DNA of 64,000 bases, from NCBI GenBank assembly GCA_046757685.1, contig JBHHYV010000006.1, positions 283 to 64,282 of the forward strand. Direction: 5' to 3'. The translations under genes were made by a program, and so were the position numbers. The notes under the pieces are model-generated. The model did not search any database, was not told the origin of the DNA, and saw only the letters and a program-made list of their open reading frames with translations. The stretch comes from Myxococcota bacterium. GTDB taxonomy: Bacteria; Myxococcota_A; UBA9160; SZUA-336. Shown piece by piece: positions 1 through 28,259 of the stretch (position 1 is the first letter of the stretch; every line of letters starts with the position of its first letter).

Positions 1-472
1 GCCCGTCGGCGGCCGCGGGGATCAAGCGCTCGAAGGGGTTGGAGGTGAAGAGCATGAAGAGCAGGAAGCCGACCGAGACCAGTCCGAGCACGGCGACCAC
101 GCGCGCCGCCATCGGGTCGGGAAGGTGACGCCGGAAGGTCCCGACCGCAGCCGTCCAGCCGCAGAGCATGAGCGCCCAGAGCAGCAGCGACCCCTCGTGC
201 CCTCCCCACACGGCCGCGATCCGGTAGTGGAGGGGGAGGGCGGAGTTCGAGTGCTCCGCGACGTAGAGCACCGAGAAGTCGTTGACCACGAACGCGTAGG
301 TGAGGCAGCCGAAGGCGAGCGCCACGAAGGCGAGCTGGCCGAGGGAGGCGGGGCGCGCGAGTCCCATCCAGACCGCATCGCCGCGCGCGGCCCCCACCAG
401 GGGCAGCGTGCTCTGCACTGCCGCCAGGCAGAGCGCCAGGATCAACGCCAGGTGGCCGACTTCGGGAATCAC
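1..472 (-). CDS. ccmF: cytochrome c-type biogenesis protein CcmF, N-terminal part (gene runs off the window start)
   Basis: Not in the ORF track because there is no stop in the window. Reverse translation from GTG (472-470) gives VIPEVGHLALILALCLAAVQS...FVVNDFSVLYVAEHSNSALPLHYRIAAVWGGHEGSLLLW, a typical CcmF N-terminus. A GGAGG lies just upstream, and the gene follows ccmE. Confidence 0.8.
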   Translation of the reverse strand, partial: MIPEVGHLALILALCLAAVQSTLPLVGAARGDAVWMGLARPASLGQLAFVALAFGCLTYAFVVNDFSVLYVAEHSNSALPLHYRIAAVWGGHEGSLLLWALMLCGWTAAVGTFRRHLPDPMAARVVAVLGLVSVGFLLFMLFTSNPFERLIPAAADG

Positions 473-485
473 GGCGAGCCTCCGG

Positions 486-953
486 CTAGTTCGTGACGAG
501 GGACGACTGCGGCCAGCCCGAGGGGGGGGCCTGGTGACGATCGCCGAGGGCCGCGGCGACCTCGGGGGGCATGTAGGTCTCGTCGTGCTTGGCCAGCACC
601 TGGGTGGCCCGGAACACGCCGTCCTTGCGCAGCCGGCCCTGGACCACGGCGCCCTGTCCCTCGGTGAAGAGGTCCGGCAGGATCCCCGTGTACGACACCT
701 CGACCCGCTCCTTCAGGTCGGTCACCACGAAGTGCACGGTGAGCCCGTCGGACTCTCGCTTCAGGCTGCCCGGCTCGACCAGCCCGCCCACGCGGTAGGC
801 GCGGCCCTGCGGCGCCTTGCCCTGGGCGATGTCGGAGGGCGTGATGAAGAAGACCAGGTTGCTCTGGAAGGCATTGAGCACAAGGGCCGTCGTGAGCGCG
901 AGGGCGACCAGGCCCACTCCGACGAACGCGAGCCTCCTTCGGCGAGGCGTCAT
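486..953 (-). CDS. ccmE: cytochrome c maturation haem chaperone CcmE
   Basis: Has an N-terminal membrane anchor (LAFVGVGLVALALTTALVL) and the haem-binding LAKHDETYMPPEV motif. Start taken at the internal ATG (MTPRRRR), which overlaps the ccmD stop as ATGA. The longer track ORF 486..1127 overlaps ccmD. Confidence 0.9.
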   Translation of the reverse strand: MTPRRRRLAFVGVGLVALALTTALVLNAFQSNLVFFITPSDIAQGKAPQGRAYRVGGLVEPGSLKRESDGLTVHFVVTDLKERVEVSYTGILPDLFTEGQGAVVQGRLRKDGVFRATQVLAKHDETYMPPEVAAALGDRHQAPPSGWPQSSLVTN

Positions 954-1120
954 CGGGAGTCCACCTTTCGCTCGTGCGCGTGTTGGGCGCGACGCAGATC
1001 CGCCCGGCGTCGCGACCGGAGCTGCAGCAGCTCGACGGTCAATGCCAGGGCCACGACGCCATAGGCGCCCCACACGTAGAACGCATAGCCCCCCATCGAG
1101 AGGAAGTGGGCCAGGCTCAC
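950..1120 (-). CDS. ccmD: haem exporter protein CcmD
   Basis: This is the tail of track ORF 950..2053. The sequence MGGYAFYVWGAYGVVALALTVELL matches the CcmD signature MGGYAFFVW. GTG at 1120 overlaps the ccmC stop as GTGA. ATG at 1096 is an alternative start. Confidence 0.7.
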   Translation of the reverse strand: MSLAHFLSMGGYAFYVWGAYGVVALALTVELLQLRSRRRADLRRAQHAHERKVDSR

Positions 1121-1890
1121 GAGGCATCTCCCAGGAGATCGCGCACCCACTCGGTGTGGCGCTCGCGTTCGAGGATCACGCAGCGGACGCGCAGAAGCAC
1201 GGTGACGAAGCTGTGAAGCCAGAAGGCCAGCGTCATGATCAGCATCGCGGTGAGCATGACCTGGGCCATGCGCTGCGGCCCGCTCACGCTGATCGAAGCC
1301 CCCTGGTGCAGGGTGTTCCACCAGCGCACCGAGAAGAAGATGATCGGCACGTTGACGACCCCGACCAGGGCCAAGAGCCCCGTCGCGCGATCGGCGCGCC
1401 GCGGGTCGTCGATCGCCGCGCGCAGCGCCATCACCCCCAGGTAGAGGAAGAGCAGCACCAGCTCCGAGGTCATGCGCGCGTCCCAGGCCCACCAGGTGCC
1501 CCAGACCGGCCGCCCCCAGAGCGATCCCGTCCAGAGTGCCAGGAAGGTGAAGAGCGCCCCGGTCGGGGCGAGGGCAGTGGCCATCATCGAGGAGAGCCGC
1601 GTGCGGAAGACCAGCCCCAGGCCCGCGTAGAAGGCCATGCACAGGTAGAGCCAGAGAGACATCCAGGCGGCAGGCACGTGCACGAAGATGATCCGGTACG
1701 CATCGCCCTGGCGGAAGTCGGGGGGCGCGATGTAGAGACCCAGGACGAGGCCGACGACCGCGAGCAGCGTGGCCGGGATCGCGAACCAGGGAATCAGCCT
1801 TCCCGCCAAGGGGTAGAAGTATGCGGGCGCGGCGTATCGCGACCAGCGTGTCGGCGCGGGCGGGGACATCGTGGCTCGTCTTCCTCTCAT
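1117..1890 (-). CDS. ccmC: haem exporter protein CcmC
   Basis: Polytopic membrane protein with the Trp-rich WGRPVWGTWWAWDARM motif (WGxxWxWD) and conserved His residues. ATG at 1869 is an alternative start. Confidence 0.9.
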   Translation of the reverse strand: MRGRRATMSPPAPTRWSRYAAPAYFYPLAGRLIPWFAIPATLLAVVGLVLGLYIAPPDFRQGDAYRIIFVHVPAAWMSLWLYLCMAFYAGLGLVFRTRLSSMMATALAPTGALFTFLALWTGSLWGRPVWGTWWAWDARMTSELVLLFLYLGVMALRAAIDDPRRADRATGLLALVGVVNVPIIFFSVRWWNTLHQGASISVSGPQRMAQVMLTAMLIMTLAFWLHSFVTVLLRVRCVILERERHTEWVRDLLGDAS

Positions 1891-1913: not shown

Positions 1914-2609
1914 TCAGTCGAGCGAGATCCGGAGTGCCGCCGCCGTGGCCACCGGAGTGAACGAGAGCGCCGCGACCCAGAAGGCCGCGAGCAGCGACAG
2001 CTGCCCCTGCGCTCCCAGACCGGAGATCTCGGCCTGCACGGCCCCGGCGCCAAAGATCAGGACCGGGACGTACAACGGTAGCACCAGGATCGAGACCAGC
2101 ACTCCGCCTCCCCGAAGCCCCAGGGTCAGGGCGGCCGCGATCGCCCCGACCGCGCTCAGCACCGGTGTGCCCAGCAGCAGCGACAGGGCCAGCACGCCGA
2201 GGCTCTCGGGGGGCAGCCCGTACTGGAGGGCCAGCAGCGGGGCGATCGCCACCAGCGGGGCGCCGGTCGCGATCCAGTGGGCGACGACCTTTGCCAGGAC
2301 CAGGAGCGCGAGCGACTGGGGAGCGACGAGCATCTGCTCGAGGGTGCCGTCCGCGTGGTCGCTCGCAAAGAGCCGCCCCAGCGCGAGCATCTGGGCGAGC
2401 AGGGCCGCGACCCAGAGCACTCCGGGGCCGAGCACGCGCAGGGTCTCCATCTCGGGACCGACCCCGAGGGGAAAGAGGCTGGCGACGATCACGAAGAAGA
2501 AGAGCGACGAGAGCACGTCGGAGCGGCGGCGCAGGGCCAGGGTCAGGTCGCGCCGGACCAGGCTGCCGGTGGCGCCGAGCGTCGCTCCGAGGAGGGTGCC
2601 CGCGCTCAT
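1914..2609 (-). CDS. ccmB: haem exporter permease CcmB
   Basis: 231-aa hydrophobic protein between ccmA and ccmC. Its start overlaps the ccmA stop (ATGA). Confidence 0.85.
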   Translation of the reverse strand: MSAGTLLGATLGATGSLVRRDLTLALRRRSDVLSSLFFFVIVASLFPLGVGPEMETLRVLGPGVLWVAALLAQMLALGRLFASDHADGTLEQMLVAPQSLALLVLAKVVAHWIATGAPLVAIAPLLALQYGLPPESLGVLALSLLLGTPVLSAVGAIAAALTLGLRGGGVLVSILVLPLYVPVLIFGAGAVQAEISGLGAQGQLSLLAAFWVAALSFTPVATAAALRISLD

Positions 2610-3301
2610 GGGCCGAGGTCGAGGACCTTCGCGAGGCCCGCCTGGAGTGTCACCGAGCGATGGCTGGCGAGCAGCACCCGGCCTCCCCGGGACAGGTGCT
2701 CGGCGACCGTCGCGCGCACCGTCTCGAGGGCATCGGAGTCCAGCGCGTTGAAGGGCTCATCGAGGATCCAGAGCGGGGCCGGCGAGACCAGCAGCCGGCA
2801 GAGCGCGGCGCGGCGCCGCTGGCCCTGGGACAGGAGCTTGGTCGGAAGCTCCTCGCAGGCCGCCAGGCCGAGGCGCTCGAGCGCGAGCGACAGCTCCTTG
2901 GCCGTGACGGTCGCGCGGGCCAGGCTTGCGGCGAAGCGCAGGTTCTCCCGGCAGGTGAGCTCCGCCTGGAGCGCGTCGAAGTGGCCGATGTAGCACAGCT
3001 GCGCCCGGAACTCCTCGCCGAGCGCCCCGATCCGCGATCCGCGCCAGCGAACCTCTCCCCGCGTGGGCCGGACGAGGCCGCAGACCGTGCGCAGGAGGGT
3101 CGTCTTGCCGCAGCCGTTGGGGCCGCGCACGTGGATCCACTCGCCCTCTCCCAGCTGGAAGTCGATCCCCGAGAAGAGCCGTCGCTCGCCGCGGTCGCAG
3201 GTCAGTCCATCGGCCTCGAGCACGGGCGTGAGGGTGTGCTTCTCGGGCCCGATCCGCACGCGCCGGGCCGGCTGGCTGCGGCCGCCGCGGGCTCTCTCCA
3301 C
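2606..3301 (-). CDS. ccmA: cytochrome c biogenesis ABC ATPase CcmA
   Basis: Walker A GPNGCGKTTLLR, ABC signature LSQGQRRR and Walker B LWILDEP. The start could instead be GTG at 3223. Confidence 0.85.
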   Translation of the reverse strand: MERARGGRSQPARRVRIGPEKHTLTPVLEADGLTCDRGERRLFSGIDFQLGEGEWIHVRGPNGCGKTTLLRTVCGLVRPTRGEVRWRGSRIGALGEEFRAQLCYIGHFDALQAELTCRENLRFAASLARATVTAKELSLALERLGLAACEELPTKLLSQGQRRRAALCRLLVSPAPLWILDEPFNALDSDALETVRATVAEHLSRGGRVLLASHRSVTLQAGLAKVLDLGP

Positions 3302-3393: not shown

Positions 3394-3894
3394 ATGATGA
3401 GACGTTCCCTCATTCCGTGGCACCGCCGCTCGAAGCCGGTGCCGATCCATCGCGAGATGAGCCCGTTCCTCTCGCTGCGCCGCGAGCTGGACGACGTCTT
3501 CGGAGAGTTCCTGCGCGACTTCGATCTCGCGCCCTCCCTGTGGGGCTTCGGAGCGCAGGCCTTCGAGCCCTCGCTCGACGTCCACGAGACGGAGGACGAG
3601 ATCCAGGTGAGCGTCGAGCTCCCCGGCGTCGAGGAGAAGGACATCGAGGTCAGCGTCTCCGAGGAGGCGCTCACGATCCGCGGCCAGAAGAGCCAGGAGC
3701 GAGAGCACTCCGAGAGGGGGGCGCAGTGGCAGGAGCGATCCTACGGGTCGTTCGAGCGCACGCTCCCGCTGCCGCCGGGAGTGGAGGTCGGCAAGGCCGA
3801 GGCCCGCTTCCAGCGCGGCGTGCTGACCGTGACGCTGCCCAAGAGCCAGGAGGCCCAGCGGGCGGTGCGGCGGCTCGAAGTGAAGGGCGAGTAG
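3394..3894 (+). CDS. Hsp20/alpha-crystallin family small heat-shock protein
   Basis: Alpha-crystallin domain: PSLDVHETEDEIQVSVELPGVEEKDIEVSV...ERSYGSFERTLPLP...RGVLTVTLPK. A strong AGGAGAAAGGAGG ribosome-binding site lies upstream. Confidence 0.9.
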   Translation: MMRRSLIPWHRRSKPVPIHREMSPFLSLRRELDDVFGEFLRDFDLAPSLWGFGAQAFEPSLDVHETEDEIQVSVELPGVEEKDIEVSVSEEALTIRGQKSQEREHSERGAQWQERSYGSFERTLPLPPGVEVGKAEARFQRGVLTVTLPKSQEAQRAVRRLEVKGE

Positions 3895-4000: not shown

Positions 4001-4444
4001 ATGCAGATTCGCACGATTCTCGTCCCCGTCGACTTCTCGAACCACTCGGACCGGGCGCTCCGGTACGCGCTCGAGATCGCCCAGCACTTCGGTGCGAGGC
4101 TGCATCTCTTTCACGCGTACAGCCTGCCGGCCGGACCGGCGACGGCCTACGACTACATGATTCCAGCCGACCTCTCCGCAGGGCTGCGGGAGGCGGCGAT
4201 CCAGCGCCTGGACGAGCTCGCGAAGACCCTCGAGCAGAAGGGCGTCGAGGTGACGACCGAGGTCTCCCAGGGTGTCGCGAGCCAGGCGATCTGCGACGCG
4301 GTCGAGCGGGAGAAGCCCGACCTGCTGGTGATGGGGACCCGGGGCCTCTCGGGTCTCAAGCACGTGCTGCTGGGTAGCGTCACCGAGCGGACGCTGCGCA
4401 GGGTGCGCTGTCCGGTGCTGACGCTGCACGCGGACTCCGCCTGA
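4001..4444 (+). CDS. universal stress protein (UspA family)
   Basis: ILVPVDFSNHSDRALRYA...DLLVMGTRGLSGLKHVLLGSVTERTLRRVRCPVLTL, a typical Usp ATP-binding fold. Confidence 0.9.
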   Translation: MQIRTILVPVDFSNHSDRALRYALEIAQHFGARLHLFHAYSLPAGPATAYDYMIPADLSAGLREAAIQRLDELAKTLEQKGVEVTTEVSQGVASQAICDAVEREKPDLLVMGTRGLSGLKHVLLGSVTERTLRRVRCPVLTLHADSA

Positions 4445-4736: not shown

Positions 4737-5366
4737 GTGATGCCTTGGAATCGCTGCAAGTACGCCATCGGGGTCTTCGCGATCGTGCTGACATTTGGGT
4801 ACGGCTCGCAGAGCCTCGCGGCCATTACGGGGACGGATCACGACTTCTCCACGCAGGGATTCAGCGGCGGAGAGATCTGTGTGGTATGCCACACGCCGCA
4901 CTTCTCGGATACCACCGTGGTCGATGCGCCCCTGTGGAACCACGAGCTCACGACGCAGAGCTTCACGCCCTACTCGAGCGCGACCCTTGACGCGGCGGTC
5001 GGACAGCCTCAGGGCATCTCGAAGCTCTGCTTGAGCTGCCACGACGGCTCCGTCGCAGTCGATGCGTTCGGCGGGAAGCCCGGCGGCAGCTTCTTCGTGC
5101 CGCCTCAGGACCAGGTCGGGACCGACCTGAGCAATGACCACCCGATCTCGTTCGTCTTCGACGCCAGCCTCGCCTCCACGGATGGCTCGCTCTTCGATCC
5201 CACGACGAAGAGCTCGGGCCTGGGCGGGACGATCGACCAGGACATGCTCTTCTCCGGCAATCTCGAGTGCGCTTCGTGTCACGACGTGCACGACTCGGGG
5301 TTCCCCGAGTTCCTGGTGAAGTCCAACGCGGGTAGCGGGCTCTGCCTGACCTGCCACGACAAGTAG
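4737..5366 (+). CDS. secreted tetrahaem c-type cytochrome (paired-CXXCH type)
   Basis: Signal peptide plus four CXXCH motifs (CVVCH, CLSCH, CASCH, CLTCH). HDFS...CVVCHTPH is typical of doubled-CXXCH domains. Paralogous to the N-terminus of ORF 11566..13269. Confidence 0.85.
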   Translation: MMPWNRCKYAIGVFAIVLTFGYGSQSLAAITGTDHDFSTQGFSGGEICVVCHTPHFSDTTVVDAPLWNHELTTQSFTPYSSATLDAAVGQPQGISKLCLSCHDGSVAVDAFGGKPGGSFFVPPQDQVGTDLSNDHPISFVFDASLASTDGSLFDPTTKSSGLGGTIDQDMLFSGNLECASCHDVHDSGFPEFLVKSNAGSGLCLTCHDK

Positions 5367-5384
5367 TGACAACCGGTTCGCCGA

Positions 5385-5420
5385 CCCCGGGGAGCGCCGC
5401 CAGCGGCCCGCTCCCTGGGG
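5385..5420 (+). promoter_or_regulatory. intercistronic GC-rich stem-loop
   Basis: CCCCGGGGAGCG (5385-5396) pairs with CGCTCCCTGGGG (5409-5420): a 12-bp stem with one G-U pair and a 12-nt loop. No U-tract follows. Confidence 0.45.
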
Positions 5421-5461
5421 GCTCGCTGGCGACGGCATAGCATCGGCCGGGGACTGGAGCC

Positions 5462-6628
5462 GTGGAGCGCAGGAGTAGGAGGGTCCATCCTCATCCGGCC
5501 GCCGGAGCCGTGCGCTTCGGGCTCCTGCTCTTCGTCTCCGGATGCCTCTTCGCGAGAGCCCCCGCGCCCCCCCCCGAGGACGTCTTCTACCCCGCACCTC
5601 CTCAGGAGCCCAGGATCCAGTACCTGGCGACCTTCGAGTCGACGCGTGATGTCGTAGGCCCGCCGAGCTGGTTCCGGCGCTTCGTGGTCGGGGACGAGCC
5701 GGCCTCCGGGCTCGGAAAGCCCTACGGAGTGGCGATCCACGGCGGCGAGATCTTCGTCTGCGACACCCGCTCGAACGTGGTCGTGATCATGAATCTCGTG
5801 GATCGAAGTGTCGAGCTTCTCGGAGCGCGCGCGAACGGGCGTCTCCACAAGCCGATCAACGTGGCCGTCGACGACGACGGCACCCGCTACGTGGCCGATA
5901 CCGGCTTGCGGCGAATCCTGGTCTACGACTCGACGAATGCGTTCCAGCGCGCCTACGGCGACCCCGAGCGCTGGTCTCCCTCCGATCTCGCGATCTCGGG
6001 AGAGCGTCTCTACGTCGCGGACGTGCGAAACGGACGGGTCGCGGTGCTGGACAAGGCCACGGGCCGCGAGCTTGGACGCATCGGTCGCAAGGGAAGCGGG
6101 CGCGGCGAGTTGGTGTTCCCGACGAACGTCGCGGTCGATCGGAACGAGCACGTCTTCGTCGCCGACACGGGCAACTCCCGGGTCGTCGAATTCGCCCCCG
6201 ACGGGGAGTTCGTGCGCCAGATCGGCTCGCTCGGAAGGAAGCTCGGCCAGTTCGTGCGTCCCAAGGGAATCGCCGTGGATCGGGAGGGGAGAGTCTACGT
6301 CGTGGACTCCGCCTTCGAGAACGTCCAGATCTTCGACTCCGAGGGAAGGCTCCTGCTCTTCTTCGGGGGCCGCGGCAATGCACCCGGGGGGCTGAATCTG
6401 CCTGCGACCGTCGCTGTCGACTACGACAACGTCGGACTCTTCGCCGATCGGGTCGCCGCGGGTAGAGAGATCGAACATCTGATCCTGGTGAGTAGCCAGT
6501 TCGGCAGGAACAAGGTGAACGTCTACGGGTTTCTCGCTCCGGCTCGTCCCGGGGGCGCTACCCAGACGGGGCGCACCCAGGACGGGCCTCGGAGTCGTGC
6601 CCATGCTGGGCAGGGCGCTCGGCGATGA
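5462..6628 (+). CDS. NHL-repeat beta-propeller lipoprotein
   Basis: Lipobox LLLFVSGC. Repeated NHL-type blades, e.g. PYGVAIHGGEIFVCDTRSNVVVIMN, INVAVDDDGTRYVADTGLRRILVYD, FPTNVAVDRNEHVFVADTGNSRVVEF and PKGIAVDREGRVYVVDSAFENVQIFD. No CXXCH. Confidence 0.85.
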   Translation: MERRSRRVHPHPAAGAVRFGLLLFVSGCLFARAPAPPPEDVFYPAPPQEPRIQYLATFESTRDVVGPPSWFRRFVVGDEPASGLGKPYGVAIHGGEIFVCDTRSNVVVIMNLVDRSVELLGARANGRLHKPINVAVDDDGTRYVADTGLRRILVYDSTNAFQRAYGDPERWSPSDLAISGERLYVADVRNGRVAVLDKATGRELGRIGRKGSGRGELVFPTNVAVDRNEHVFVADTGNSRVVEFAPDGEFVRQIGSLGRKLGQFVRPKGIAVDREGRVYVVDSAFENVQIFDSEGRLLLFFGGRGNAPGGLNLPATVAVDYDNVGLFADRVAAGREIEHLILVSSQFGRNKVNVYGFLAPARPGGATQTGRTQDGPRSRAHAGQGARR

Positions 6629-6646
6629 ATCCGAGGGATCGAGAAG

Positions 6647-10469: not shown

Positions 10470-10477
10470 GGGTCCAC

Positions 10478-17202: not shown

Positions 17203-17469
17203 TCAACGCGCTTTCGGCCCGTGGGCCGGGTTCGCGTCCTCCGGCGGCGCCCCGCGGTGCAGGCCGATGAAGACGTAGGTCAGTGTGCCCGCGACGGTGA
17301 GGTAGACGGGTGTCATCACCAGGCTGATGGCCAGGGTCCAGTTGAGCGCATCGTGCCAGCGTGCGGCTACGGAGATCAGCCAGGGTACGAAGATCAGAAT
17401 GGCCACCGCGAAGAGCCACATGAGGGAGATCGAGAGAAACTGGAGCGCAGTGATCCACTTTCGATACAT
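17203..17469 (-). CDS. small hydrophobic membrane protein (88 aa), last gene of the Qrc/ACIII-like operon
   Basis: This is the tail of track ORF 17203..17766. The ATG overlaps the NrfD stop (ATGA). MYRKWITALQFLSISLMWLFAVAILIFVPWLISV... suggests 2-3 predicted TM helices. No family recognised. Confidence 0.5.
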   Translation of the reverse strand: MYRKWITALQFLSISLMWLFAVAILIFVPWLISVAARWHDALNWTLAISLVMTPVYLTVAGTLTYVFIGLHRGAPPEDANPAHGPKAR

Positions 17470-19569: not shown

Positions 19570-19584
19570 GGGTCCTCCCTTCCC

Positions 19585-21786
19585 TTACGCCTTCTCGAGA
19601 AAGACCGGAATCGGCCCCCAGGTGGGTGCCCCGGTCGTCGCGTCGAAGAGCGCATAGGGAAGCTTCAAAGGGTTGCCACCGACCCTCTCGGTCACGACGC
19701 CCGGCGCCGAGAGACCGAAGCCCAGGGGCGCCGCCACGGAGCCCGGCGTGATGCTGCGCGTCACCACCACCCTGGCCTCGATCTCCGCGCGCGGACCTCG
19801 GATCTTGACCCGATCGCCGTGAGACATCCCCCGAGAGTGGGCATCGATGGGGTGCAGCTCGACCCACGACTCCCAGAGCACGCCGTGGGGCATTCCAGCA
19901 ATCTCCATCAGCATCGGTCGGTCCAGGACGCGCCCGCCCCGAATGGCCGGTCCGTCAAAGGGTACGAGCCAGAGCTGACGCGGCGCGAGCGCAGGAGGTC
20001 GGGCGGGCGGAGAGGACGTGACCGCTTGCCCGGAGGTCCGCGCAGCCAGCGCGCGCTGGGGCGCCAGCCACATCGCCTCTCCCGAAAGCAGCTCGCGCTT
20101 CGCAGTCTTTGCATCGACCTGTGCCAACGCGTTGCGCTGGGAGCGCTCGACCAGCTCGCCCTGCCCACGTCGCACCACGACGTCCACTGCCTTCTCCACG
20201 AGCCCCTGCATGGTCGGGGCTGGAGGAGCGAATCCGGGGCCTGCAGATCCTGTCTTCGCGAGATCGAGCAGAACGTCCTCGGGCGCGCGCGCTTCGACTA
20301 CCGGCACCATGGCGGGACGCTGAACCTGGAGCGCCGCATCGGGCACCCCCCACGCCGGCGAGGGCAGATCCCAGGACTCCAGATCCAGGAGCGTCGGTAG
20401 GGTCACGTGCGAGAGCAGCGCCGTATGAGTCTCCCGCGAAGCGAAGGTCGCCACGAAGGGCACGTGGCTTATGGCGCGGGCGATCTGGTCCTGCCCCGGA
20501 AGCTCGTGAACCAGGTTCGCCTCGATGCAGATCAGTACGTCGACGGGTGAGCGGCGGATCTCGAAGAGAGGCTGGAGGATCTCGGGGAGGCCGCCGTCCA
20601 GCGCGCCCCCCGACTCCCCCAGTGAGAGCGCGCGGGCCAGGTCGTCGAGCGGATCGCTGGCCCAGGAGAGTCCGCCTCGCTCTCGGAAGCCGCCAGTCCA
20701 CAGGTTCAGGGCCAGGGCTGCGCGAACATCGGCCGCGCCGTCGACCCGGCGCAGGAGCGCCGGACCGGGTAGCACGACTCCCGGGGCGAAGCGGCGCAGT
20801 GCGCGAGCCGCGAGCTCGAGCTCGCCGGCGCGCAGGCCCAGGTTCTCGGGTGCAAAGCGGCGCGCGAAGGTGATCGGGTCCCGGGCCTCGGGAACCCAGC
20901 GAGCGTAGCGGGCGAGAGTTGCAGAGCGCTGCGGATGCCCCTCGCTCAAGGTCTGGGCGAGACCCAGCAGGATGTCCCGCTCCTGGCCCGGAGCGCTGGG
21001 GATCCAGGCGTCGCTCTTCGCTGCGGTCGCTCCCTGGCGTGGGCCCAGGTAGAGCGTCGGTGCGGCGCCCGTGTCCGGATGCTCGCGTCGCTCGCCGTGG
21101 GCGCGCATCTGGGAGACGGGACTGCCGTCCACGTCCAAGAGCTCGTCACCCACCAGGAGCAGGGTTCCGCTGTGCGCGAGATCTACGCGCAGCCGTCCCT
21201 TCTTCGCCCCGCCGAAGAACTCGCCGGCCAGCTGGTCCAGCGCTCCTTCGACACGGAGCGGGATGTAGCGCGCCCCGGGGATCGAGCGTACCCAGGTTTC
21301 GACGAGGCGGGTTCCCAGGGAAGGGGTGCGCCCATCCACGACCGCCAGGCGATCTCCGGCCCCTGCGGCCACCAGCTTGCGGAGCTGCCCTCCAAGCAGA
21401 CCGAGGGCTTCTTCCCATGCAGCCGGGTGGCCTTCCGCCCCGGCATCGCTGCGCACCAGGGGTGTCGCCAGGCGCAGAGGATCGAAGAGCGCCTGCATCT
21501 GGGACTGGCCGGCGGCGCACAGCGAGCCCTGGCTCGCGGGATGCCAGGGAGTCCCTCGCAGTCCGACCGGGAGCTGGTCGATCTTGCGCAGCGAGAGCGA
21601 GCAGTGGTTCGGGCAGTCGCGGCAGACGCTCCGCGAGAAGCTCTCCAGGCCCGGGCCGCGCACGTCCTGGAAGCTGAGTCGGTCGACCGCATACTGGTGC
21701 AGGCGGTCGAGGAGCCAGTCGCCCCCCGACGCCGAGACACCCGCGGCACCGAGCGACTTGAGGAAGGTCCGGCGAGAGAGGGCCAT
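19585..21786 (-). CDS. Tat-exported molybdopterin-oxidoreductase-family large subunit (PsrA/QrcB/ActB1-like)
   Basis: Start taken at the internal ATG with the twin-arginine signal MALSRRTFLKSLGAAG. N-terminal Cys motif CRDCPNHC...(x24)...C (CxxCxxxC...C). About 730 aa. No in-frame stop. Confidence 0.8.
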   Translation of the reverse strand: MALSRRTFLKSLGAAGVSASGGDWLLDRLHQYAVDRLSFQDVRGPGLESFSRSVCRDCPNHCSLSLRKIDQLPVGLRGTPWHPASQGSLCAAGQSQMQALFDPLRLATPLVRSDAGAEGHPAAWEEALGLLGGQLRKLVAAGAGDRLAVVDGRTPSLGTRLVETWVRSIPGARYIPLRVEGALDQLAGEFFGGAKKGRLRVDLAHSGTLLLVGDELLDVDGSPVSQMRAHGERREHPDTGAAPTLYLGPRQGATAAKSDAWIPSAPGQERDILLGLAQTLSEGHPQRSATLARYARWVPEARDPITFARRFAPENLGLRAGELELAARALRRFAPGVVLPGPALLRRVDGAADVRAALALNLWTGGFRERGGLSWASDPLDDLARALSLGESGGALDGGLPEILQPLFEIRRSPVDVLICIEANLVHELPGQDQIARAISHVPFVATFASRETHTALLSHVTLPTLLDLESWDLPSPAWGVPDAALQVQRPAMVPVVEARAPEDVLLDLAKTGSAGPGFAPPAPTMQGLVEKAVDVVVRRGQGELVERSQRNALAQVDAKTAKRELLSGEAMWLAPQRALAARTSGQAVTSSPPARPPALAPRQLWLVPFDGPAIRGGRVLDRPMLMEIAGMPHGVLWESWVELHPIDAHSRGMSHGDRVKIRGPRAEIEARVVVTRSITPGSVAAPLGFGLSAPGVVTERVGGNPLKLPYALFDATTGAPTWGPIPVFLEKA

Positions 21787-21793
21787 CGTTCCC

Positions 21794-22393
21794 CTACCTG
21801 TGGCACAGCAGGCAGTCGACGCCTGCTCGTGGGTTTCCACTCTTGAGATGACAGCTGATGCAGCGCTCCATCCCAGAGGGACCGTTGAAGTCGATGTAGG
21901 GCCGCGAGAAGGGCACCTCGCGTTTGGCAACCTCTCCGTGACAGGTCTCGCACAGAATCTTGCCTGCCTTCACGTGGCGCCGGTGGGAGAAGTGCACGTA
22001 CTCCTCGAGCTTGTCCACGCGCTTCCAGGGGATCGGCTCGCCCTTCTCCAGGAACGCGACGAGCTTGGCCTCCTCGGGGTTGTCCCCGATGGCCTCCTCG
22101 TGGCAGTCCTCACAGACGTCGCCCGAAGGGATGGTGGCGTGGTCGGAGTCCTCGGCACCCTCGTGGCAGTCGGTGCAGGGGATCTCCTCCTCGGCTACGT
22201 GGATCTCATGAACGTAGGCGATGGGCTGCTCGACTGGGAGGCGTGCGGAGCAGCCGAGCGCGAGGAGACCGGCCAGACCCGCGATCCCCAGGACGGCTGC
22301 GCGGCGGAAGGCCCCCGATTCCGCGATCTCCGCGACTGGCGGTGAGGCGAGCGTCGAAGCGGCAGGGACGAACCAGACCCTCCGGACTCTCAC
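21794..22393 (-). CDS. pentahaem c-type cytochrome lipoprotein (ActA/QrcA-like)
   Basis: GTG start. Lipobox-like LLALGC. Five CXXCH motifs (CTDCH, CEDCH, CETCH, CISCH, CLLCH). FSHRRHV...CETCH is c3/c7-like. Confidence 0.8.
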   Translation of the reverse strand: MRVRRVWFVPAASTLASPPVAEIAESGAFRRAAVLGIAGLAGLLALGCSARLPVEQPIAYVHEIHVAEEEIPCTDCHEGAEDSDHATIPSGDVCEDCHEEAIGDNPEEAKLVAFLEKGEPIPWKRVDKLEEYVHFSHRRHVKAGKILCETCHGEVAKREVPFSRPYIDFNGPSGMERCISCHLKSGNPRAGVDCLLCHR

Positions 22394-22847: not shown

Positions 22848-23843
22848 GTGAGGGGTAGAGATACATCGACTTCCGCCACCGGGAGCGCGGGTCGCCTTCG
22901 GGTCAGGGCTCGCCGCGTGGCGAGTGTGGCGCTTCCGATCCTCACTCTGGCAGCGATCGTCGCTTGTGTGACGGCTTGGCCGACGACCGTCCCCGAGCGC
23001 CTCCACCGCATCGCGAACGTTCCGGGGGCCCAGGCCGTGGGCGCGGAGGAGTGCGGCACCTGCCACGAGGACATCGAGGGACACGCCCCGATCCCCGCCT
23101 ATCACTCGGACTGCGAGGCGTGTCATGGGGGCGGCAGCCTTCATGTCGATAGCGAGAAGCCCGCCGACATCCGGTTCCCCACCGCGGACGACTGCCTGAG
23201 CTGCCACGAGAAGGGCCGCACCACGCACATGGACTTCGCCACGGGGGAGCACTCGCGCGCGGGGCTGATCTGTGCGGACTGCCACAACCCCCACAACCGA
23301 GAGCCGCACCACGTGCGGGTTGTCCAGGCCGTCTCCTTCCCACAGATGGAGCCGAACTCGAAGCTCTGCATCGGATGCCACGCCGATGTGGCGGCGCGCC
23401 TGCACTACCCATCCCATCACCCGGTGGCCGAGGGCATGCTCTCCTGCATCGATTGCCACTCTCCCCACGAGGACCGTCGGGCTGCGCTCGGCGACAAGAC
23501 GCAGCTATGCGCAGGCTGCCACCAGGATCACGTCGGTCCCTGGATCTACGAGCATCCACCGGTGACCGAGGACTGCATGATCTGTCACAACCCGCACGGG
23601 ACCGCCGCATTCAACCTGCTCGAGACCAACGTCCCCGCGATCTGCCTCTCGTGTCATACCCCTGCGGACGATCCACACCTGCTCGAGACCGGGGATCCGG
23701 CCGCGGCGACGATCACAACGGACGCGCCGACGCTACCTGGACAGAGGATCACGGCGCTGGGGGCGTCCGCTGTCTATACACGCTGCACCGATTGCCACGG
23801 AGCGATTCACGGATCGATGCAAGACCACCATCTGTGGAGGTGA
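22848..23843 (+). CDS. decahaem c-type cytochrome, MtrA/DmsE/PioA/MtoA family
   Basis: 331 aa with exactly ten CXXCH motifs and a family-typical C-terminus (RCTDCHGAIHGS). The N-terminal signal ends in a lipobox-like IVAC. The start codon is uncertain. Confidence 0.85.
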   Translation: MRGRDTSTSATGSAGRLRVRARRVASVALPILTLAAIVACVTAWPTTVPERLHRIANVPGAQAVGAEECGTCHEDIEGHAPIPAYHSDCEACHGGGSLHVDSEKPADIRFPTADDCLSCHEKGRTTHMDFATGEHSRAGLICADCHNPHNREPHHVRVVQAVSFPQMEPNSKLCIGCHADVAARLHYPSHHPVAEGMLSCIDCHSPHEDRRAALGDKTQLCAGCHQDHVGPWIYEHPPVTEDCMICHNPHGTAAFNLLETNVPAICLSCHTPADDPHLLETGDPAAATITTDAPTLPGQRITALGASAVYTRCTDCHGAIHGSMQDHHLWR

Positions 23844-23848
23844 GATCA

Positions 23849-26143
23849 ATGGCGTCGAAACTTGCGGGCACGATCGGGTGGGTCGTCGTCGGGCTGTGGG
23901 TGCTGCCTTCCGCGGCGATGGGCGATGGGGATTCGTCGCTTCGCTGGTCTGCGACCAGCGAGATGCGGTTCACCGACATCCGTGCGCCCTCCGACGAGGA
24001 CTTCCGCACCGGCTTCCTGGACAAGTACCAGTTCAGCGCGGACAAGAACAACCAGTTCCCGTTCGAGATCGCGCTCAGCCGCGCGGCCCTCGACTGGTTC
24101 GGGGCCGCCGAGACCCCGCGCATCCAGTTCCGCTTTCGGAGCCCCTCCTCGGACCTCTCGGTCTCGGGCGACGGCCCCTCGACGGGGGAGTTCTTCCTGA
24201 GCCAGCGCGGCGACCTCTTTGCGCGTTTTCCGGGCCTGGCGGCGGACTTGGTGTACCGGCGCAGCCGCATCGACGAGCTGCGCCTCTTCACGAATCCTAC
24301 GGGTCTGGGGAGCGCCCCCTTCACGCTCTTCAATGACGGCACGAGTGGTCGGCGCCGCTTCTTCGTCCGCCGCGAGCAGGTGGGAGGTGCGATCCACCTG
24401 AGACCCTGCGACCTGCTCTGCGACCAGCCGAAGGGCTGGCTCTCCGAGCTGAACCTGAGGGGCTCCTGGGAGGATCGATCGGGTCGGCGACAGCTGCGCT
24501 TCATGCTCGGCGGCGGCGACCTCATCGGAGGGGGCGCCCAGACCAGTCGCTGGCGCGCGGTCGAGCAGGATCTGGACCAGCAGTCCGTGAAGCTCGGCAG
24601 CAGCCTGGTGTTCTCTCCGGGCGGCCTGTTCACCCTGGAGCTCGCCTTCGATCACGAGCGCTTCCGCAACCGCTCCGGTCCCTTCCTGCAGAGTCAGCTC
24701 ACGGCCATGGACTCCAATATCGACTCGGCGTCGGGCGTCCTGGGACTTGGCGCGGGAACCGCGGGCCTGCAGACGCTGGGCTTCATTCCCGAGACGAGCC
24801 GGAGCACCGGTACGGCGCGTTTCCAGACCCGCCTCTGGGACCGCCGCATCGCGATCCACGGAGGGTTCCAGCTCAGCAAGCTCAAGCAGATCGGTAAGCT
24901 CTCGCCCCTCCAGAACCTGGCCGGGCTCGATCGCAACAACATCTTCTTCTACTCCGGGAATCTCGCCGCCAGAGGCCGGATCACCGAGATCGCCTCGGTC
25001 AACGCGTTCGTTCGCTTCGACAATCGCCGCAACCGGATCGACCGCTCGACGGTGCTCTTCAACTCGAGGGATACGAACTTCAACACCCAGTTCGACCCCT
25101 TCGTGGCAGGGCTGCGGAACATCGATACCGGCGCCGAGATCGTCCTCAGGCCGGTCCGGGCCTTCCGCTTCACCGTTGGAAGCCGCGCCCACTTCACGAA
25201 TCGCGCCCTCGACTTCCTGGACAAGCCCCTGTCGAGTGAGGGCATCCTGCCCTCGGTGACCGTCATCGACGACGACACCGTGACGTACACGGTCTACGTC
25301 AAGTCGAATGCGCGACCGATCTCGGGTCTCAATCTCTCGAGCGAGCTGGGGCTGCGCGAATCGCCGAAGACGGGCTACATCCGCGAGCTCGACGACGTGC
25401 GCTACGGGAAGGGACGCGCCTCCTACGCGCTTCCACTGTCCCGTCCCGTGACTCTCAGCGCCTTCGCCAACGGAGAGCGGGGCGAGAACAACGACTTCAA
25501 GATGCTGGGCGAGACCGCGGGGACCAGAGATCGAGGCTTCGACCAGGTGCGCTACTCCTACGGGGTCACGCTCACCGGCTCGCCGACCGATGAGCTCTCG
25601 CTCTTCGGGAGCTTCTTCCAGTCTCGCGATGCCCAGGACTTCAATCTCGTCCGGGCCACGATTCCACGCATGGATGGAAGGGACCCGACCGTCCTGGACC
25701 TCGACTTCTTCATCGATGCGCCCCTCGAGTTCCGGACGGACCAGACCAACCTGGTCATCGGCGGGAACGCCCAGCTGACTCGCCAGGCCAGTGCCAACGT
25801 CTACTACTCGTTCACCCGCTCCAAGTCGCGCTTCGACTCGATCAATACGACGTCAGCGACCATCGCGAATGCCAGCCGGATTCGCAGCGATATCCAGAGC
25901 ATCGGGACGGGGCTCAGCTTCCACCTCCGGGACGGTGCGGATCTGTCGCTCGGCTATCGCTACGACGCCTACCACGACCGTGCCGGGGTCAACGGGTCGG
26001 CCGGCTCTGCGACCCCCTTCCGGCTCTCGACCGGACGCCACTTCGTTACGCTGGGCGTGACGCTGACGGACGAGTTCTTCGGAGGCAAACCACCGCCGGC
26101 GGGCACTGCGAGAGCCGGGGGTCGCCGTCTCGCGCTGCGCTGA
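23849..26143 (+). CDS. putative MtrB/PioB-like outer-membrane beta-barrel
   Basis: The ATG is 5 nt after the decahaem stop. Signal peptide ...VLPSAAMG, 764 aa, no Cys, rich in Gly/Asp/Arg/aromatic alternating segments. Size and position match decahaem-associated barrels. Family not verified. Confidence 0.6.
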   Translation: MASKLAGTIGWVVVGLWVLPSAAMGDGDSSLRWSATSEMRFTDIRAPSDEDFRTGFLDKYQFSADKNNQFPFEIALSRAALDWFGAAETPRIQFRFRSPSSDLSVSGDGPSTGEFFLSQRGDLFARFPGLAADLVYRRSRIDELRLFTNPTGLGSAPFTLFNDGTSGRRRFFVRREQVGGAIHLRPCDLLCDQPKGWLSELNLRGSWEDRSGRRQLRFMLGGGDLIGGGAQTSRWRAVEQDLDQQSVKLGSSLVFSPGGLFTLELAFDHERFRNRSGPFLQSQLTAMDSNIDSASGVLGLGAGTAGLQTLGFIPETSRSTGTARFQTRLWDRRIAIHGGFQLSKLKQIGKLSPLQNLAGLDRNNIFFYSGNLAARGRITEIASVNAFVRFDNRRNRIDRSTVLFNSRDTNFNTQFDPFVAGLRNIDTGAEIVLRPVRAFRFTVGSRAHFTNRALDFLDKPLSSEGILPSVTVIDDDTVTYTVYVKSNARPISGLNLSSELGLRESPKTGYIRELDDVRYGKGRASYALPLSRPVTLSAFANGERGENNDFKMLGETAGTRDRGFDQVRYSYGVTLTGSPTDELSLFGSFFQSRDAQDFNLVRATIPRMDGRDPTVLDLDFFIDAPLEFRTDQTNLVIGGNAQLTRQASANVYYSFTRSKSRFDSINTTSATIANASRIRSDIQSIGTGLSFHLRDGADLSLGYRYDAYHDRAGVNGSAGSATPFRLSTGRHFVTLGVTLTDEFFGGKPPPAGTARAGGRRLALR

Positions 26144-26268
26144 GCCCCTCGAGTCCCGATTCCTGCTCGTGGAGCGCGGTCTTGCGGGGCTGACAGGAGC
26201 ATGCTGAATGGATCTCCAGGCTCGAAGCTCGCCTCGGGGGCTCGCTCTGCCGAGGGGAAGGAGGCCGG

Positions 26269-26928
26269 ATGAGGATGGGCGCGACGGCGATGGTGTGTGC
26301 TGCAGGTGTGGTCGCGATCCTCCTCGCGGGCCCTGCTCTTGCCGCGGAGGGGGCGCCGGCCAAGTTCGTGAGCGCGAAGAAGTGCGCGACGTGCCACAAG
26401 AAGAAGCTGATCGGGAACCAGTACGGGGCATGGCAGCGCTCGGCTCACGCTCGAGCCTTCGAGGACCTGTCGACCGATCGCGCGCGTGCAGTCGCAGCCA
26501 AGGTGGGAGTGAAGGGCGACCCGGCCCAGGCGCCCCAGTGCCTGGAGTGCCACGTGACGGGCTACGGGGCGGGGCCGGAGGCCTTCCTCAAGGGGGCTCT
26601 GGTTCTCGCCGAAGGCGTCGGCTGCGAGAGCTGTCACGGCGCGGGCCAGAACTTTCGCAAGAAGTCGATCATGTCGGACCTGGAGCTGGCCAAGTCGAAG
26701 GGCCTGCGGATTCCCGAGGACGCGGATTGCCGGGTCTGCCACAACGAGAAGAGCCCGACCTGGGATGAGAACCGCTACGTCCTGGCCTCGGGAAAGCACG
26801 TAGGCTTTGACTTCGATCTCGCCCGCAAGAAGATCGCCCACAAGATTCCGGAAGACGTCAAGGGTCACTACGTCGAGATCGAGAAGAAGCTGAGGAAAGA
26901 GAAGAAGCTGAGGGAGAAGGGCCGGTAG
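26269..26928 (+). CDS. secreted tetrahaem cytochrome, c554-like family (paralogue of 16373..17050)
   Basis: GGAAGGAGG ribosome-binding site and a signal peptide. Four CXXCH motifs (CATCH, CLECH, CESCH, CRVCH). Collinear with 16373..17050, including ...GFDF(E/D)LA(K/R)KKI.H.IP..VKGHY(I/V)E(L/I)EKK and a Lys/Glu tail. Confidence 0.85.
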   Translation: MRMGATAMVCAAGVVAILLAGPALAAEGAPAKFVSAKKCATCHKKKLIGNQYGAWQRSAHARAFEDLSTDRARAVAAKVGVKGDPAQAPQCLECHVTGYGAGPEAFLKGALVLAEGVGCESCHGAGQNFRKKSIMSDLELAKSKGLRIPEDADCRVCHNEKSPTWDENRYVLASGKHVGFDFDLARKKIAHKIPEDVKGHYVEIEKKLRKEKKLREKGR

Positions 26929-27359
26929 TCCGGGGAGCTGAGGGTGAGATCCTGCGCCTGGCCTCGGAGCCCTGCGAGCCTCTCCCGGGCGACTGCCGCA
27001 GCCTCGTCGATCCGTTCGACGTCGTAGGTGTGCGCGACGAAGACCTCGCGCAACCGGATCTCGCGGGGAACCGGCTTTGCGATCGCATGCCGTTCACTCA
27101 TGTGGCAGGTCGTGCAGACGGCGACCCTCCTTCCAGAGGCCCGCTTTCCGCCCATCACACTCAGGCTGTACGCGTCGAGAATCTCCTCGTGACAGACCCC
27201 ACAGAACCGGGGCGTGACGAAGGGATCCGCCTTCTCGAATGCCTCGGGAGGCAGGTAGAGCAGGGGAGCGAAGAAGAGGACGGCACTGAATACGCTCAGG
27301 AACCCGAGTGCAACCGCAACGTCCTCCAGAACGAAGTCGGGAAAGAAGCGCCGGGGCAG
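26868..27359 (-). pseudogene. cytochrome b C-terminal-like segment fused to a dihaem c domain, out of frame with the upstream cytochrome b fragment
   Basis: My translation of the frame shifted relative to 27296..27778 gives LPRRFFPDFVLEDVAVALGFLSVFSAVLFFAPLLYLPPEAFEKADPFVTPRFCGVCHEE...VAVCTTCHMSE. The FFPDF...ADPFVTP part resembles the cytochrome b/subunit IV helix E region and is followed by two CXXCH motifs. There is no ATG/GTG/TTG before 27158. Confidence 0.5.
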
Positions 27360-27778
27360 CCCGTGAAGCAGAGACCGAGCGTCGTGAAGAGCAGAAGGCA
27401 GCCCGTCAGCCAGTGGAGCTCCCGGGGCCGCTTGTACGATCTCATCGCGACCACGCTCAGCATGTGCAGGAGCAGGACGATCATCATGGCGTTGGCGCCG
27501 TGCACGTGAATCAGCCGGATGAGCCAGCCAAACGGGATCTCGTGCATGATCCGCTGGATGCTCTCGAACGCGTGCATCGAGTCGGGAACGTAGTAGATGA
27601 GCAGCAGAATCCCCGTCGCGATCTGCAGCGCGACAAAGACCAGGAGGACGAAGCCGAGCGAGTACCAGCGGTTCGTCGTCGCGGGAACCAGGTAGTCGAT
27701 CAGCTGGGTGCGAACCAGCCGGCGAAGCCCGGTTCGTTCATCCAACCAGTCGACGAGCCGGCTACGCCGGTCGGACAA
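27296..27778 (-). pseudogene. cytochrome b N-terminal fragment (helices A-C only)
   Basis: WYSLGFVLLVFVALQIATGILLLIYY, then helix B with the His-x13-His pair (LIHVHGANAMMIVLLLH), then ELHWLTGCLLLFTTLGLCFTG. After that, the expected YLLPWDQ and the helix D His pair are replaced by an unrelated 20-aa tail and a stop. Confidence 0.6.
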
Positions 27779-28259
27779 CGATCTTCCCCTGGCGGACAGC
27801 GACCGCGAAGCGCGGCAGGGGAGCTGGGGGAGGCCCGCCGAGGACTCGCCCGTCCGGGGCGAATCGACCGCCGTGGCAAGGGCAGAAGAAGATCCGCCGG
27901 CTCCGCTGCCACTTCACGACGCACCCGAGGTGGGTGCAGACTCCGGAGAGGGCATAGATCCGGTCGGTCGTTCGCATGACGAAGGCAGGGCGGCCGCCTA
28001 CGAGCACCCTCACGGCATCCCAGAGTCGGGCCTGGTCCGCCGGGATCTCGATCCGACCTCCGAGCTCTCCACCTCCGGTCGGGGTGAGATCACGCAGGGT
28101 CGGTAGGCACCCGACCGCAAGCCCCACGCCCGCTACGACACCGCCGTCTCGCGGGCGTCTCGCCGTGTCGGCAGCGCTGCGTACGGCCCTCGCAGGAGCG
28201 CCGTCGCGGTACCGAGTAGACTCGAAATCGAGGCCGGGATCAAGGGCCGCAGCTCGCAC
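27762..28259 (-). CDS. Rieske [2Fe-2S] protein
   Basis: CTHLGCVV...CPCHGGRF Rieske boxes (CxH...CxxH). Overlaps the start of the cytochrome b fragment by 17 nt. Confidence 0.85.
   Translation of the reverse strand: MRAAALDPGLDFESTRYRDGAPARAVRSAADTARRPRDGGVVAGVGLAVGCLPTLRDLTPTGGGELGGRIEIPADQARLWDAVRVLVGGRPAFVMRTTDRIYALSGVCTHLGCVVKWQRSRRIFFCPCHGGRFAPDGRVLGGPPPAPLPRFAVAVRQGKIVVRPA

Follow-up and report, generated by a model that had tools for sequence, protein, structure and literature searches.

The window analyzed here is a stretch of 64,000 nucleotides from a Myxococcota bacterium (GenBank assembly GCA_046757685.1, contig JBHHYV010000006.1). Its left part carries a dense array of genes for multiheme cytochromes and membrane redox complexes, headed by a putative OmcE-type cytochrome-nanowire cluster (Table 1). 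A six-frame scan of stop-to-stop open reading frames (ORFs) counted 60 CXXCH motifs, distributed over ten ORFs that lie between 4716 and 27737 (4+11+5+11+4+4+5+10+4+2), exactly reproducing the count of an earlier note on this DNA. Outside these ORFs only two such motifs occur in the window, one each in two spurious ORFs of low G+C (GC) content at third codon positions (GC3), and the density of the motif is far beyond chance. Counting intact genes only, 58 motifs lie in nine genes, and the remaining two lie in a tenth ORF (26868-27737, minus strand) that is a fused remnant. Extra CX3-4CH motifs, two in the gene at 6647-7891 and one in that at 11566-13269, could add hemes to both 11-heme proteins. 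The GC content of about 70% produces many spurious ORFs; gene models were picked by GC3, with starts refined by hand, and gene types were verified with Pfam and NCBIfam.

The array comprises eleven co-directional genes (4740-17050), a four-gene operon on the minus strand (17469-22393), three plus-strand genes (22848-26928), and a cytochrome b and Rieske pair on the minus strand (26868-28259). A scan for sigma-70 promoters and terminators gave no more hits than expected by chance. The gene types named in the earlier note (Ccm, an NrfD module, a Qrc-like operon, Rieske/cytochrome b, and two sets of a barrel plus multihemes) were all recovered with Pfam and NCBIfam, which supports its picture of a dense, envelope-spanning electron-transfer toolkit. 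In our reading, which we consider likely, the 23.5-kb region at 4.7-28.3 kb is a compositionally atypical block in a host of about 71% GC and is made of four separable extracellular-electron-transfer modules, the first of which is an omcE-type nanowire cluster.

Table 1. Genes of the cytochrome array and its left flank, with the matches or features on which each assignment is based.
Feature	Position	Strand	Basis
ccmF, N-terminal part, cut by window edge	1-472	-	Pfam Cytochrom_C_asm; translation starts VIPEVGHLAL
ccmE	486-953	-	Pfam CcmE, E = 2.7e-37; ATG at 953, then membrane anchor
ccmD, 48 residues	950-1096	-	small ORF MGGYAFYVWGAYGVVALALTVELL between ccmC and ccmE; read by eye, from motif and position only
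ccmC	1117-1890	-	Pfam Cytochrom_C_asm, 3.7e-35
ccmB	1914-2609	-	Pfam CcmB, 1e-71
ccmA	2606-3301	-	Pfam ABC_tran, 2.5e-29
hsp20, spacer gene	3394-3894	+	Pfam HSP20; host-like GC3
usp, spacer gene	4001-4444	+	Pfam Usp; host-like GC3
OmcE-like tetraheme cytochrome, putative nanowire subunit, 209 residues	4740-5366	+	alignment with 7TFS_A and 9YUQ_N
NHL-repeat β-propeller lipoprotein 1	5462-6628	+	Pfam NHL, E = 2.3e-21; lipobox FVSGC
Periplasmic 11-heme cytochrome, plus two CX3-4CH	6647-7891	+	partial match to MtrA 6R2Q_A, E = 1.6e-17
Pentaheme lipoprotein	7888-8469	+	five CXXCH; lipobox LGAGC; Pfam Paired_CXXCH_1
Large outer-membrane β-barrel, 667 residues	8466-10469	+	signal peptide, C-terminal Phe; AlphaFold model
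NHL-repeat β-propeller lipoprotein 2	10478-11569	+	Pfam NHL, E = 4e-28; lipobox AIAC
11-heme cytochrome, plus one CX3CH, 567 residues	11566-13269	+	OmcE-like N-terminal domain (residues 5-206), then 360-residue 7-heme extension
Membrane-anchored tetraheme cytochrome, start uncertain (13411-13510)	13411-14160	+	four CXXCH; N-terminal hydrophobic helix
Tat-exported (twin-arginine translocation) 4x[4Fe-4S] subunit, DsrO/NrfC-like	14147-15076	+	Pfam Fer4_11; NCBIfam DsrO 191 bits (cutoff 200); Tat motif SRRKFLKG
NrfD-family quinone-interacting membrane subunit, DsrP-like	15113-16333	+	Pfam NrfD, 8e-41; NCBIfam DsrP 363 (cutoff 350); ACIII ActC 6F0K_C, 6e-13
c554-type periplasmic tetraheme, copy 1	16373-17050	+	Pfam Cytochrome_C554, 6e-20; PDB 1BVB, 6e-15
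Qrc-like operon, NrfD-type membrane subunit	17469-18851	-	best DsrP 114 bits, ahead of QrcD 44
Qrc-like operon, iron-sulfur (FeS) subunit	18844-19569	-	NCBIfam best QrcC, 281 bits
Qrc-like operon, Tat molybdopterin-like subunit	19585-21786	-	NCBIfam best QrcB, 233 bits
Qrc-like operon, pentaheme lipoprotein	21794-22393	-	NCBIfam best QrcA, 84 bits
MtrA-like decaheme, probable lipoprotein (IVAC)	22848-23843	+	ten CXXCH; 6R2Q_A, E = 1.2e-24
MtrB-like 26-strand outer-membrane barrel, 764 residues	23849-26143	+	AlphaFold pLDDT 86.6; MtrB top Foldseek match
c554-type periplasmic tetraheme, copy 2	26269-26928	+	Pfam Cytochrome_C554, 3e-21
Decayed cytochrome b fused to pentaheme fragment, two CXXCH	26868-27778	-	junctions near 27359 and 27209
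Rieske [2Fe-2S] protein, apparently intact	27762-28259	-	Pfam Rieske, 1.4e-12; CTHLGC, CPCHGG; 62% identity to Rieske of L082

The tetraheme cytochrome at 4740 aligns with OmcE over its full length, signal peptide included (7TFS_A, E = 8e-25, 34% identity; 9YUQ_N, E = 1e-18). The N-terminal 206 residues of the 11-heme protein at 11566-13269 also span the whole of OmcE (7TFS_A, E = 6e-30), and this domain is 41% identical to the tetraheme protein. In an alignment of eight sequences, namely OmcE, the pair from the window, and orthologues from three loci in metagenome-assembled genomes (MAGs), the four CXXCH motifs and four further histidines that serve as heme ligands in OmcE are invariant. The same features are described as conserved in a preprint on D. 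soudanensis (bioRxiv 10.1101/2025.10.22.684050). The parts that define an omcE cluster are all found here: the OmcE homologue with its eight ligands, a large barrel, two propeller lipoproteins, and extra multihemes, of which the window has three (11, 5, and 11 hemes) and locus L087 exactly two. Because a full-length OmcE homologue and two NHL propeller lipoproteins fit the definition of that cluster, the genes at 4740-13269 are assigned on sequence to an omcE-type nanowire cluster and not to the Ext-like conduit suggested in the earlier note. The NCBIfam Ext models gave no match in this left cluster.

The pentaheme lipoprotein of the cluster starts at about 7888 and not inside the preceding gene. 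For the large barrel that follows it, an AlphaFold model (predicted local distance difference test score, pLDDT, 87) shows approximately 29 to 33 strands, including a conserved small inserted β domain. It belongs to no Pfam or NCBIfam family and has no specific relative in the PDB, where only generic barrels were matched (the best template-modeling [TM] score being 0.45, to MtrB); 17 homologues were found. The best-conserved part of this family is the inserted domain (residues ~400-460), not the barrel wall, with invariant D427, R441, V453, V455, and Y457 and the motif VVTD..G..Y..G.DY. This domain could be a plug or a cytochrome docking site.

The nanowire cluster recurs in a Myxococcota MAG (L001/L089), a Candidatus Binatia MAG (L086), and the MAG OFTM73 (L087/L088). 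A metagenome scan with the 11-heme protein retrieved 429 relatives, and 79 of the best 80 contain 11 CXXCH motifs. At the metagenomic loci with enough flanking sequence, an NHL gene lies upstream in 57 of 58; 36 of 38 have the pentaheme gene, 34 of 41 the barrel gene, and all 21 an OmcE-like gene. Altogether, 36 OmcE-like genes were collected from these loci. Their median length is 212 residues; 34 of them carry four CXXCH motifs, and most end in CLTCHxK. Since the GC content of the loci ranges from 0.30 to 0.69, the cluster appears to be taxonomically widespread. OmcE homologues have been listed in five phyla, Myxococcota not among them (bioRxiv 10.1101/2025.10.22.684050), and our literature search found no paper that ties OmcE to Myxococcota in the nanowire sense. 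The present loci thus place an OmcE-type nanowire cluster in Myxococcota and Binatia MAGs, beyond the five phyla reported, and show that it is common in metagenomes.

The cluster shares with the omcE cluster of the Desulfuromonadia (G. sulfurreducens, 7TFS; D. soudanensis, 9YUQ; bioRxiv 10.1101/2025.10.22.684050) the OmcE-like tetraheme with its eight ligands, the two β-propeller lipoproteins, the large barrel, the multihemes, and the co-directional arrangement of the genes. It differs in having three rather than two extra multihemes, in lacking the tail of glycosylation genes, in its other genomic neighbors, in running directly into a tetraheme/FeS/NrfD module, and in its host phylum, Myxococcota (Binatia as well), which is outside the five of the preprint. 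One multiheme of the window cluster has an OmcE-like N-terminal domain. The uet cluster of Candidatus Tenderia electrophaga (bioRxiv 10.1101/2022.05.06.490989) can be likened to it by parts list only, both having a tetraheme, a β-barrel, two NHL proteins, and an 11-heme cytochrome after the NHL genes. The genes uetABCDEFGHIJ, proposed to serve electron uptake, include in addition a peptidyl-prolyl isomerase, three trihemes, and a cupredoxin.

The 11-heme protein at 11566-13269 is the invariant partner of OmcE-like genes in environmental clusters of 30 to 69% GC. Subunits of the OmcE filament are joined by His-heme ligation across their interface (PMC9473688). Because its N-terminal ~200 residues correspond to a complete OmcE protomer with all eight ligand residues, the 11-heme protein could dock as the terminal subunit of a filament; the domain possibly includes the histidine that in OmcE ligates the heme of the neighboring subunit. 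Its 7-heme tail, aided by the pentaheme lipoprotein and the NHL propellers, might then thread the very large barrel and connect the filament electrically with the periplasm. It is speculative, and to us rather doubtful, that this protein is the missing anchor or end-piece of OmcE-type nanowires and perhaps the same protein as UetJ, to which it is likened by parts list. If it were UetJ, omcE and uet would be two descriptions of a single bidirectional machine. A conserved cytochrome with an OmcE-like domain inside the cluster is, in any case, a candidate for anchoring or starting the filament, a point left open by the structural papers.

The nanowire cluster runs into a second module (13411-17050) that appears from its sequence to be a tetraheme/Tat-FeS/NrfD quinol:cytochrome c oxidoreductase, DsrOP- or NrfCD-like, with a c554 shuttle. 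It shares with DsrOP, NrfBCD, and the Cbc complexes of Geobacter the Tat-exported FeS subunit, an NrfD-type subunit (here above the DsrP cutoff), and a membrane-attached multiheme. It differs from DsrMKJOP in that its cytochrome is a tetraheme and DsrM, DsrK, DsrJ, and DsrAB are missing. Because DsrM, DsrK, and DsrJ are absent, a Dsr identity was ruled out for the genes at 14147-16333, which have no DsrAB nearby either. The pair of FeS and NrfD subunits is 50 to 81% identical across the 40 tabulated of 80 retrieved loci (Myxococcota, Acidobacteriota, Planctomycetota, and others). The anchored tetraheme accompanies this pair in most of these loci, and a c554-type tetraheme does so in the closest Myxococcota.

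The third module (17469-22393), a Qrc-like complex of four subunits that would interact with quinone, lies on the opposite strand. It has the order A-B-C-D of the Desulfovibrio Qrc, that is, multiheme, Tat molybdopterin-like subunit, FeS subunit, and NrfD-type subunit, with a Tat signal on B and none on C, and QrcA, QrcB, and QrcC are the best models for the first three. It differs from Qrc in having five rather than six CXXCH motifs in the A subunit and a membrane subunit that favors DsrP over QrcD. Matches in the PDB were to the general Mo-bisPGD and ActC families. Alternative complex III was rejected for 17469-22393: ActD, ActE, and ActF are missing, ActB is not fused, and no further genes precede the convergent c554 gene. 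Among the 80 genome loci, only one other (L013 2470-11212, from an uncultured delta-proteobacterial MAG) has both quinone modules as neighbors, its Qrc-like pentaheme/Mo-like/FeS/NrfD operon lying 2.5 kb upstream of the tetraheme/FeS/NrfD module.

The two c554-type cytochromes (16373-17050 and 26269-26928) are paralogous and share a 169-nucleotide DNA repeat of 71% identity. Both end in strongly basic tails rich in Lys and Arg, KKQRAKKRARREQ and KKLRKEKKLREKGR, as does the orthologue at locus L082. Attachment to the membrane or to partner proteins is a possible role of these tails.

The structural model of the barrel at 23849-26143, built on 49 homologues, supports the assignment of 22848-26143 as an MtrAB-like pair of a decaheme and a predicted 26-strand barrel. 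Together with the second c554 shuttle and the adjoining remains of a Rieske/cytochrome b/pentaheme operon, the pair makes up the fourth module (22848-28259). In Foldseek, MtrB (6R2Q_B) was matched with E = 2e-20 and TM scores of 0.61 and 0.70, the runner-up having E = 4e-10. The family is small, with 137 relatives among 1.84 billion representatives, and in five of five relatives the barrel gene is preceded by a multiheme gene of about 300 to 340 residues. The order of decaheme gene and 26-strand barrel gene, the sequence similarity to MtrA, and MtrB as the best structure are shared with MtrAB of Shewanella (6R2Q) and with the PioAB and MtoAB systems that have no MtrC. The window pair differs in its lipoprotein-like decaheme, in a barrel sequence under the Pfam threshold, and in the lack of a surface cytochrome of the MtrC/OmcA type. 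The best NCBIfam scores of the decaheme, GSU2203 family (208 bits, cutoff 325) and DmsE (168, cutoff 192), are both below their cutoffs. The barrel has a weak match (E = 3e-4) to the "GSU2204 family CXXCH-containing (seleno)protein" model, and its decaheme partner is best matched by GSU2203 (OmcK), which hints that the Geobacter GSU2203-2204 pair may be a distant counterpart of the window pair.

The Rieske/cytochrome b module looks like a pseudogenized remnant. Matches to cytochrome b models break off at position 126 of 205 or 144 of 223, and similarity ends at FTG with all homologues. After this point the reading frame shifts, and helix D, the PEWY region, and the C-terminal half are absent. 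A fragment from JGI data (P0003), 83% identical, is intact and runs on through helix D and the PEWY region. The relative L082 has an intact arrangement on one strand, with decaheme, barrel, Rieske (154 residues), cytochrome b (355), pentaheme (300), and c554. Measured against it, three stretches are gone from the window copy, residues 154-230 and 279-355 of cytochrome b and residues 1-111 of the pentaheme, and the Rieske-b-pentaheme segment of the window is inverted relative to the decaheme and barrel. The surviving pieces of cytochrome b and pentaheme form a single frame-shifted ORF that carries the last two of the 60 CXXCH motifs. Of the three quinone-pool modules that the earlier note had counted, all three are present, yet the cytochrome b is truncated, so that only two look functional; a working Rieske/cytochrome b module was not borne out.

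In NCBIfam, the cytochrome b remnant is matched best by cytochrome b6 (115 bits), with ExtP almost equal to it (109 bits). The extHIJKLMNOPQS cluster of Geobacter includes the porin ExtI, the 10-heme ExtN, the Rieske protein ExtO, the cytochrome b ExtP, ExtQ, and the 4-heme ExtS (PMC5877670). A porin, a decaheme, a Rieske protein, a cytochrome b, and more cytochromes are thus clustered there as in the intact L082; the differences are a far larger barrel (764 residues versus the ~45 kDa of ExtI), the lack of a rhodanese and of ExtKL, and, in the window, the decay and inversion of the cytochrome b part. In the operon of L082, an MtrAB-like conduit is joined with a Rieske/cytochrome b complex, an arrangement that appears to have decayed in the window genome. 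At L082 (5699-8748, 12025-15682), genes for Fur, ferritin, and a complete mer cluster (MerR/T/F/A, HMA; mercury resistance) lie 3 kb downstream of the intact operon.

The region is set apart by its composition. The GC content is 0.63-0.70 across 4-28 kb versus 0.70-0.735 elsewhere, and GC3 per gene is 0.833 in the 20 genes of the block versus 0.889 in 29 flanking genes (Mann-Whitney p = 8e-7), with 0.90 for the ccm, hsp20, and usp genes. The tetranucleotide correlation with the remaining contig is 0.85-0.96 inside and 0.973-0.987 outside, and the shift has abrupt edges at 4.6 and 28.2 kb. The region of 4.7-28.3 kb is foreign-looking in composition, and the ccm genes are not. These genes encode a System I Ccm and are present in the order ccmABCDEF, with ccmF incomplete at the window edge; ccmGH were not seen in the window. 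Because their GC3 (0.90-0.93 for ccmA, ccmB, and ccmC) and tetranucleotides resemble those of the remaining contig, they lie outside the atypical segment, as host backbone that supplies heme attachment. Between them and the cytochrome genes stand hsp20 and usp, which are not part of the electron-transfer system. The comparison with the contig therefore sets off 4.7-28.3 kb as distinct and leaves the first 4.7 kb with the host, where the earlier note had drawn one island of 28 kb with the ccm genes inside.

The modules also occur apart from each other. Only the 11-gene block at 4740-17050 is colinear with a relative (L001/L089, 38-80% amino acid identity), where its neighbors are citrate synthase on one side and a hemerythrin/Crp pair on the other (L089). 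The Binatia MAG L086 has a seven-gene nanowire cluster only, and in OFTM73 the NrfD module lies on another contig than the nanowire cluster. Downstream of the 11-heme gene, at 27 metagenomic loci with enough flank, a tetraheme was found in none, an FeS gene in two, and an NrfD gene in two. Modules dispersed among relatives, which together with a lack of co-expression the earlier note would have taken as evidence against its island, are thus found in part, at L086, OFTM73, and the 27 metagenomic loci. Judging from these loci, the modules are separate cassettes, and their accumulation here is probably lineage-specific. The co-inheritance proposed in that note holds for sub-blocks such as the one shared with L089 and fails for the whole set. 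On this evidence, extracellular-electron-transfer modules move independently of one another and can collect at a single locus.

Several points weigh against reading the region as an atypical block of four modules headed by a nanowire cluster. The OmcE-like protein is only 34% identical to OmcE, conserved ligands are no proof of polymerization, and the physiological role of OmcE filaments, or the need for them, is itself disputed (PMC11077965; PMC13194489). The scores of the Qrc-like subunits all fall below the NCBIfam equivalog cutoffs (84/180, 233/440, 281/400, and 44/570), the MtrB-like barrel matches Pfam MtrB_PioB below threshold (E = 0.006), and no surface decaheme of the MtrC/OmcA type adjoins the MtrAB-like pair, the next gene being a c554-type tetraheme. 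No integrase, tRNA, or flanking direct repeats mark a mobile island. The lesions of the cytochrome b could moreover be assembly or sequencing artefacts that hide an intact Rieske/cytochrome b/pentaheme operon in the organism, which we consider unlikely. The contig probably comes from a metagenome assembly, the Rieske protein looks intact, and the nearly identical P0003 is intact in a JGI sample. Nevertheless, two separate gaps (77 and ~188 residues) within 600 bp and a change of frame, the overlap of the junk-like C terminus of the remnant with the neighboring gene, and the inversion relative to L082 are atypical of simple indel errors.

The missing marks of mobility fit another explanation, in which the locus is native and not horizontally acquired, the compositional offset being due to a different codon usage of, or selection on, a set of genes whose products are secreted and which are expressed conditionally. 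The window also gave no match to tRNA, tmRNA, or Rfam families, its repeats are limited to paralogous heme, NHL, c554, and FeS segments, and total GC lies 0 to 4 points below the flanks in several relatives. In five relatives that carry the same gene families, however, GC3 is not lowered relative to their own flanks, a control that also rejects low GC3 as an intrinsic trait of these families; the edges of the offset are sharp, and in L089 the 11-gene block lies between entirely different neighbors. We regard a native origin as rather unlikely, and a horizontal one as suggested by the composition. It is quite improbable that the 28 kb form one co-inherited island that includes the ccm genes, an Ext(ABCD/EFG)-like conduit at its left, and three functional quinone modules. 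All the genes are contiguous and the four cytochrome modules share the lowered GC3, and the parts list of a periplasmic multiheme, a pentaheme lipoprotein, and a barrel resembles those of ExtABCD and ExtEFG. Against such an island stand the host-like GC3 and tetranucleotides of the ccm genes, the broken cytochrome b, the OmcE homologue and two propeller lipoproteins that fit an omcE cluster, and the separation of the modules in relatives.

The arrangement of the parts speaks for a chain that links the quinone pool with the outer membrane. Menaquinol would be oxidized at the NrfD-type subunits, and electrons would travel via the FeS subunits and the tetra- and pentahemes attached to the membrane to reach the c554-type periplasmic carriers. 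The two barrel-cytochrome assemblies could then take them over the outer membrane, either to the OmcE-like filament on the cell surface or straight to minerals. Flow in the inward direction is also conceivable; because multiheme chains are reversible, the sequence cannot decide the direction of flow.

In the inward case, Fe(II), a cathode, or a partner cell would feed electrons into the quinone pool, with the Qrc-like complex as quinone reductase and the nanowire cluster as counterpart of Uet. Qrc of Desulfovibrio is a menaquinone reductase, and its subunits QrcA, QrcB, and QrcC are the closest NCBIfam models here. MtrAB without MtrC is the PioAB/MtoAB pattern typical of Fe(II) oxidizers, and O2-dependent enzymes are encoded in the flank. 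The uet cluster of the cathode-oxidizing Tenderiales, likened by parts list only, contributes the tetraheme UetA, the barrel UetC, the NHL proteins UetH and UetI, and the undecaheme UetJ directly after the NHL genes (bioRxiv 10.1101/2022.05.06.490989). On the other hand, the window contains no genes for carbon fixation or a high-affinity oxidase, multiheme chains are reversible, and the two OmcE filaments with solved structures are both from Desulfuromonadia that reduce metals or electrodes (bioRxiv 10.1101/2025.10.22.684050). Inward flow seems to us rather unlikely.

From 28.3 kb onwards the window contains ordinary metabolism genes, including those for the O2-dependent TauD, HemF, and P450 that the earlier note had pointed out. 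At 42165-43712 (plus strand), 14 kb from the atypical block, lies a globin-coupled sensor histidine kinase (Protoglobin, HisKA, and HATPase_c domains), a possible O2 or redox sensor with no adjoining response regulator seen. A deiodinase-like ORF (50045-50692, plus strand; Pfam T4_deiodinase) has an in-frame TGA upstream, at 50297-50299, in the context FGSYT-[TGA]-PPF, which we take to be the classical selenocysteine active site of deiodinases and thioredoxin-fold selenoproteins. It is probably a selenocysteine-containing gene split by ORF callers; a hairpin resembling a selenocysteine insertion sequence about 17 nucleotides 3' of the TGA has no folding advantage over shuffled sequence. Two unusually large fusions were also observed on the minus strand: a 905-residue protein with two CoA-transferase family III domains (38102-40819) and a 1137-residue protein that joins a spermidine-synthase-like domain to TPR repeats (55392-58805).

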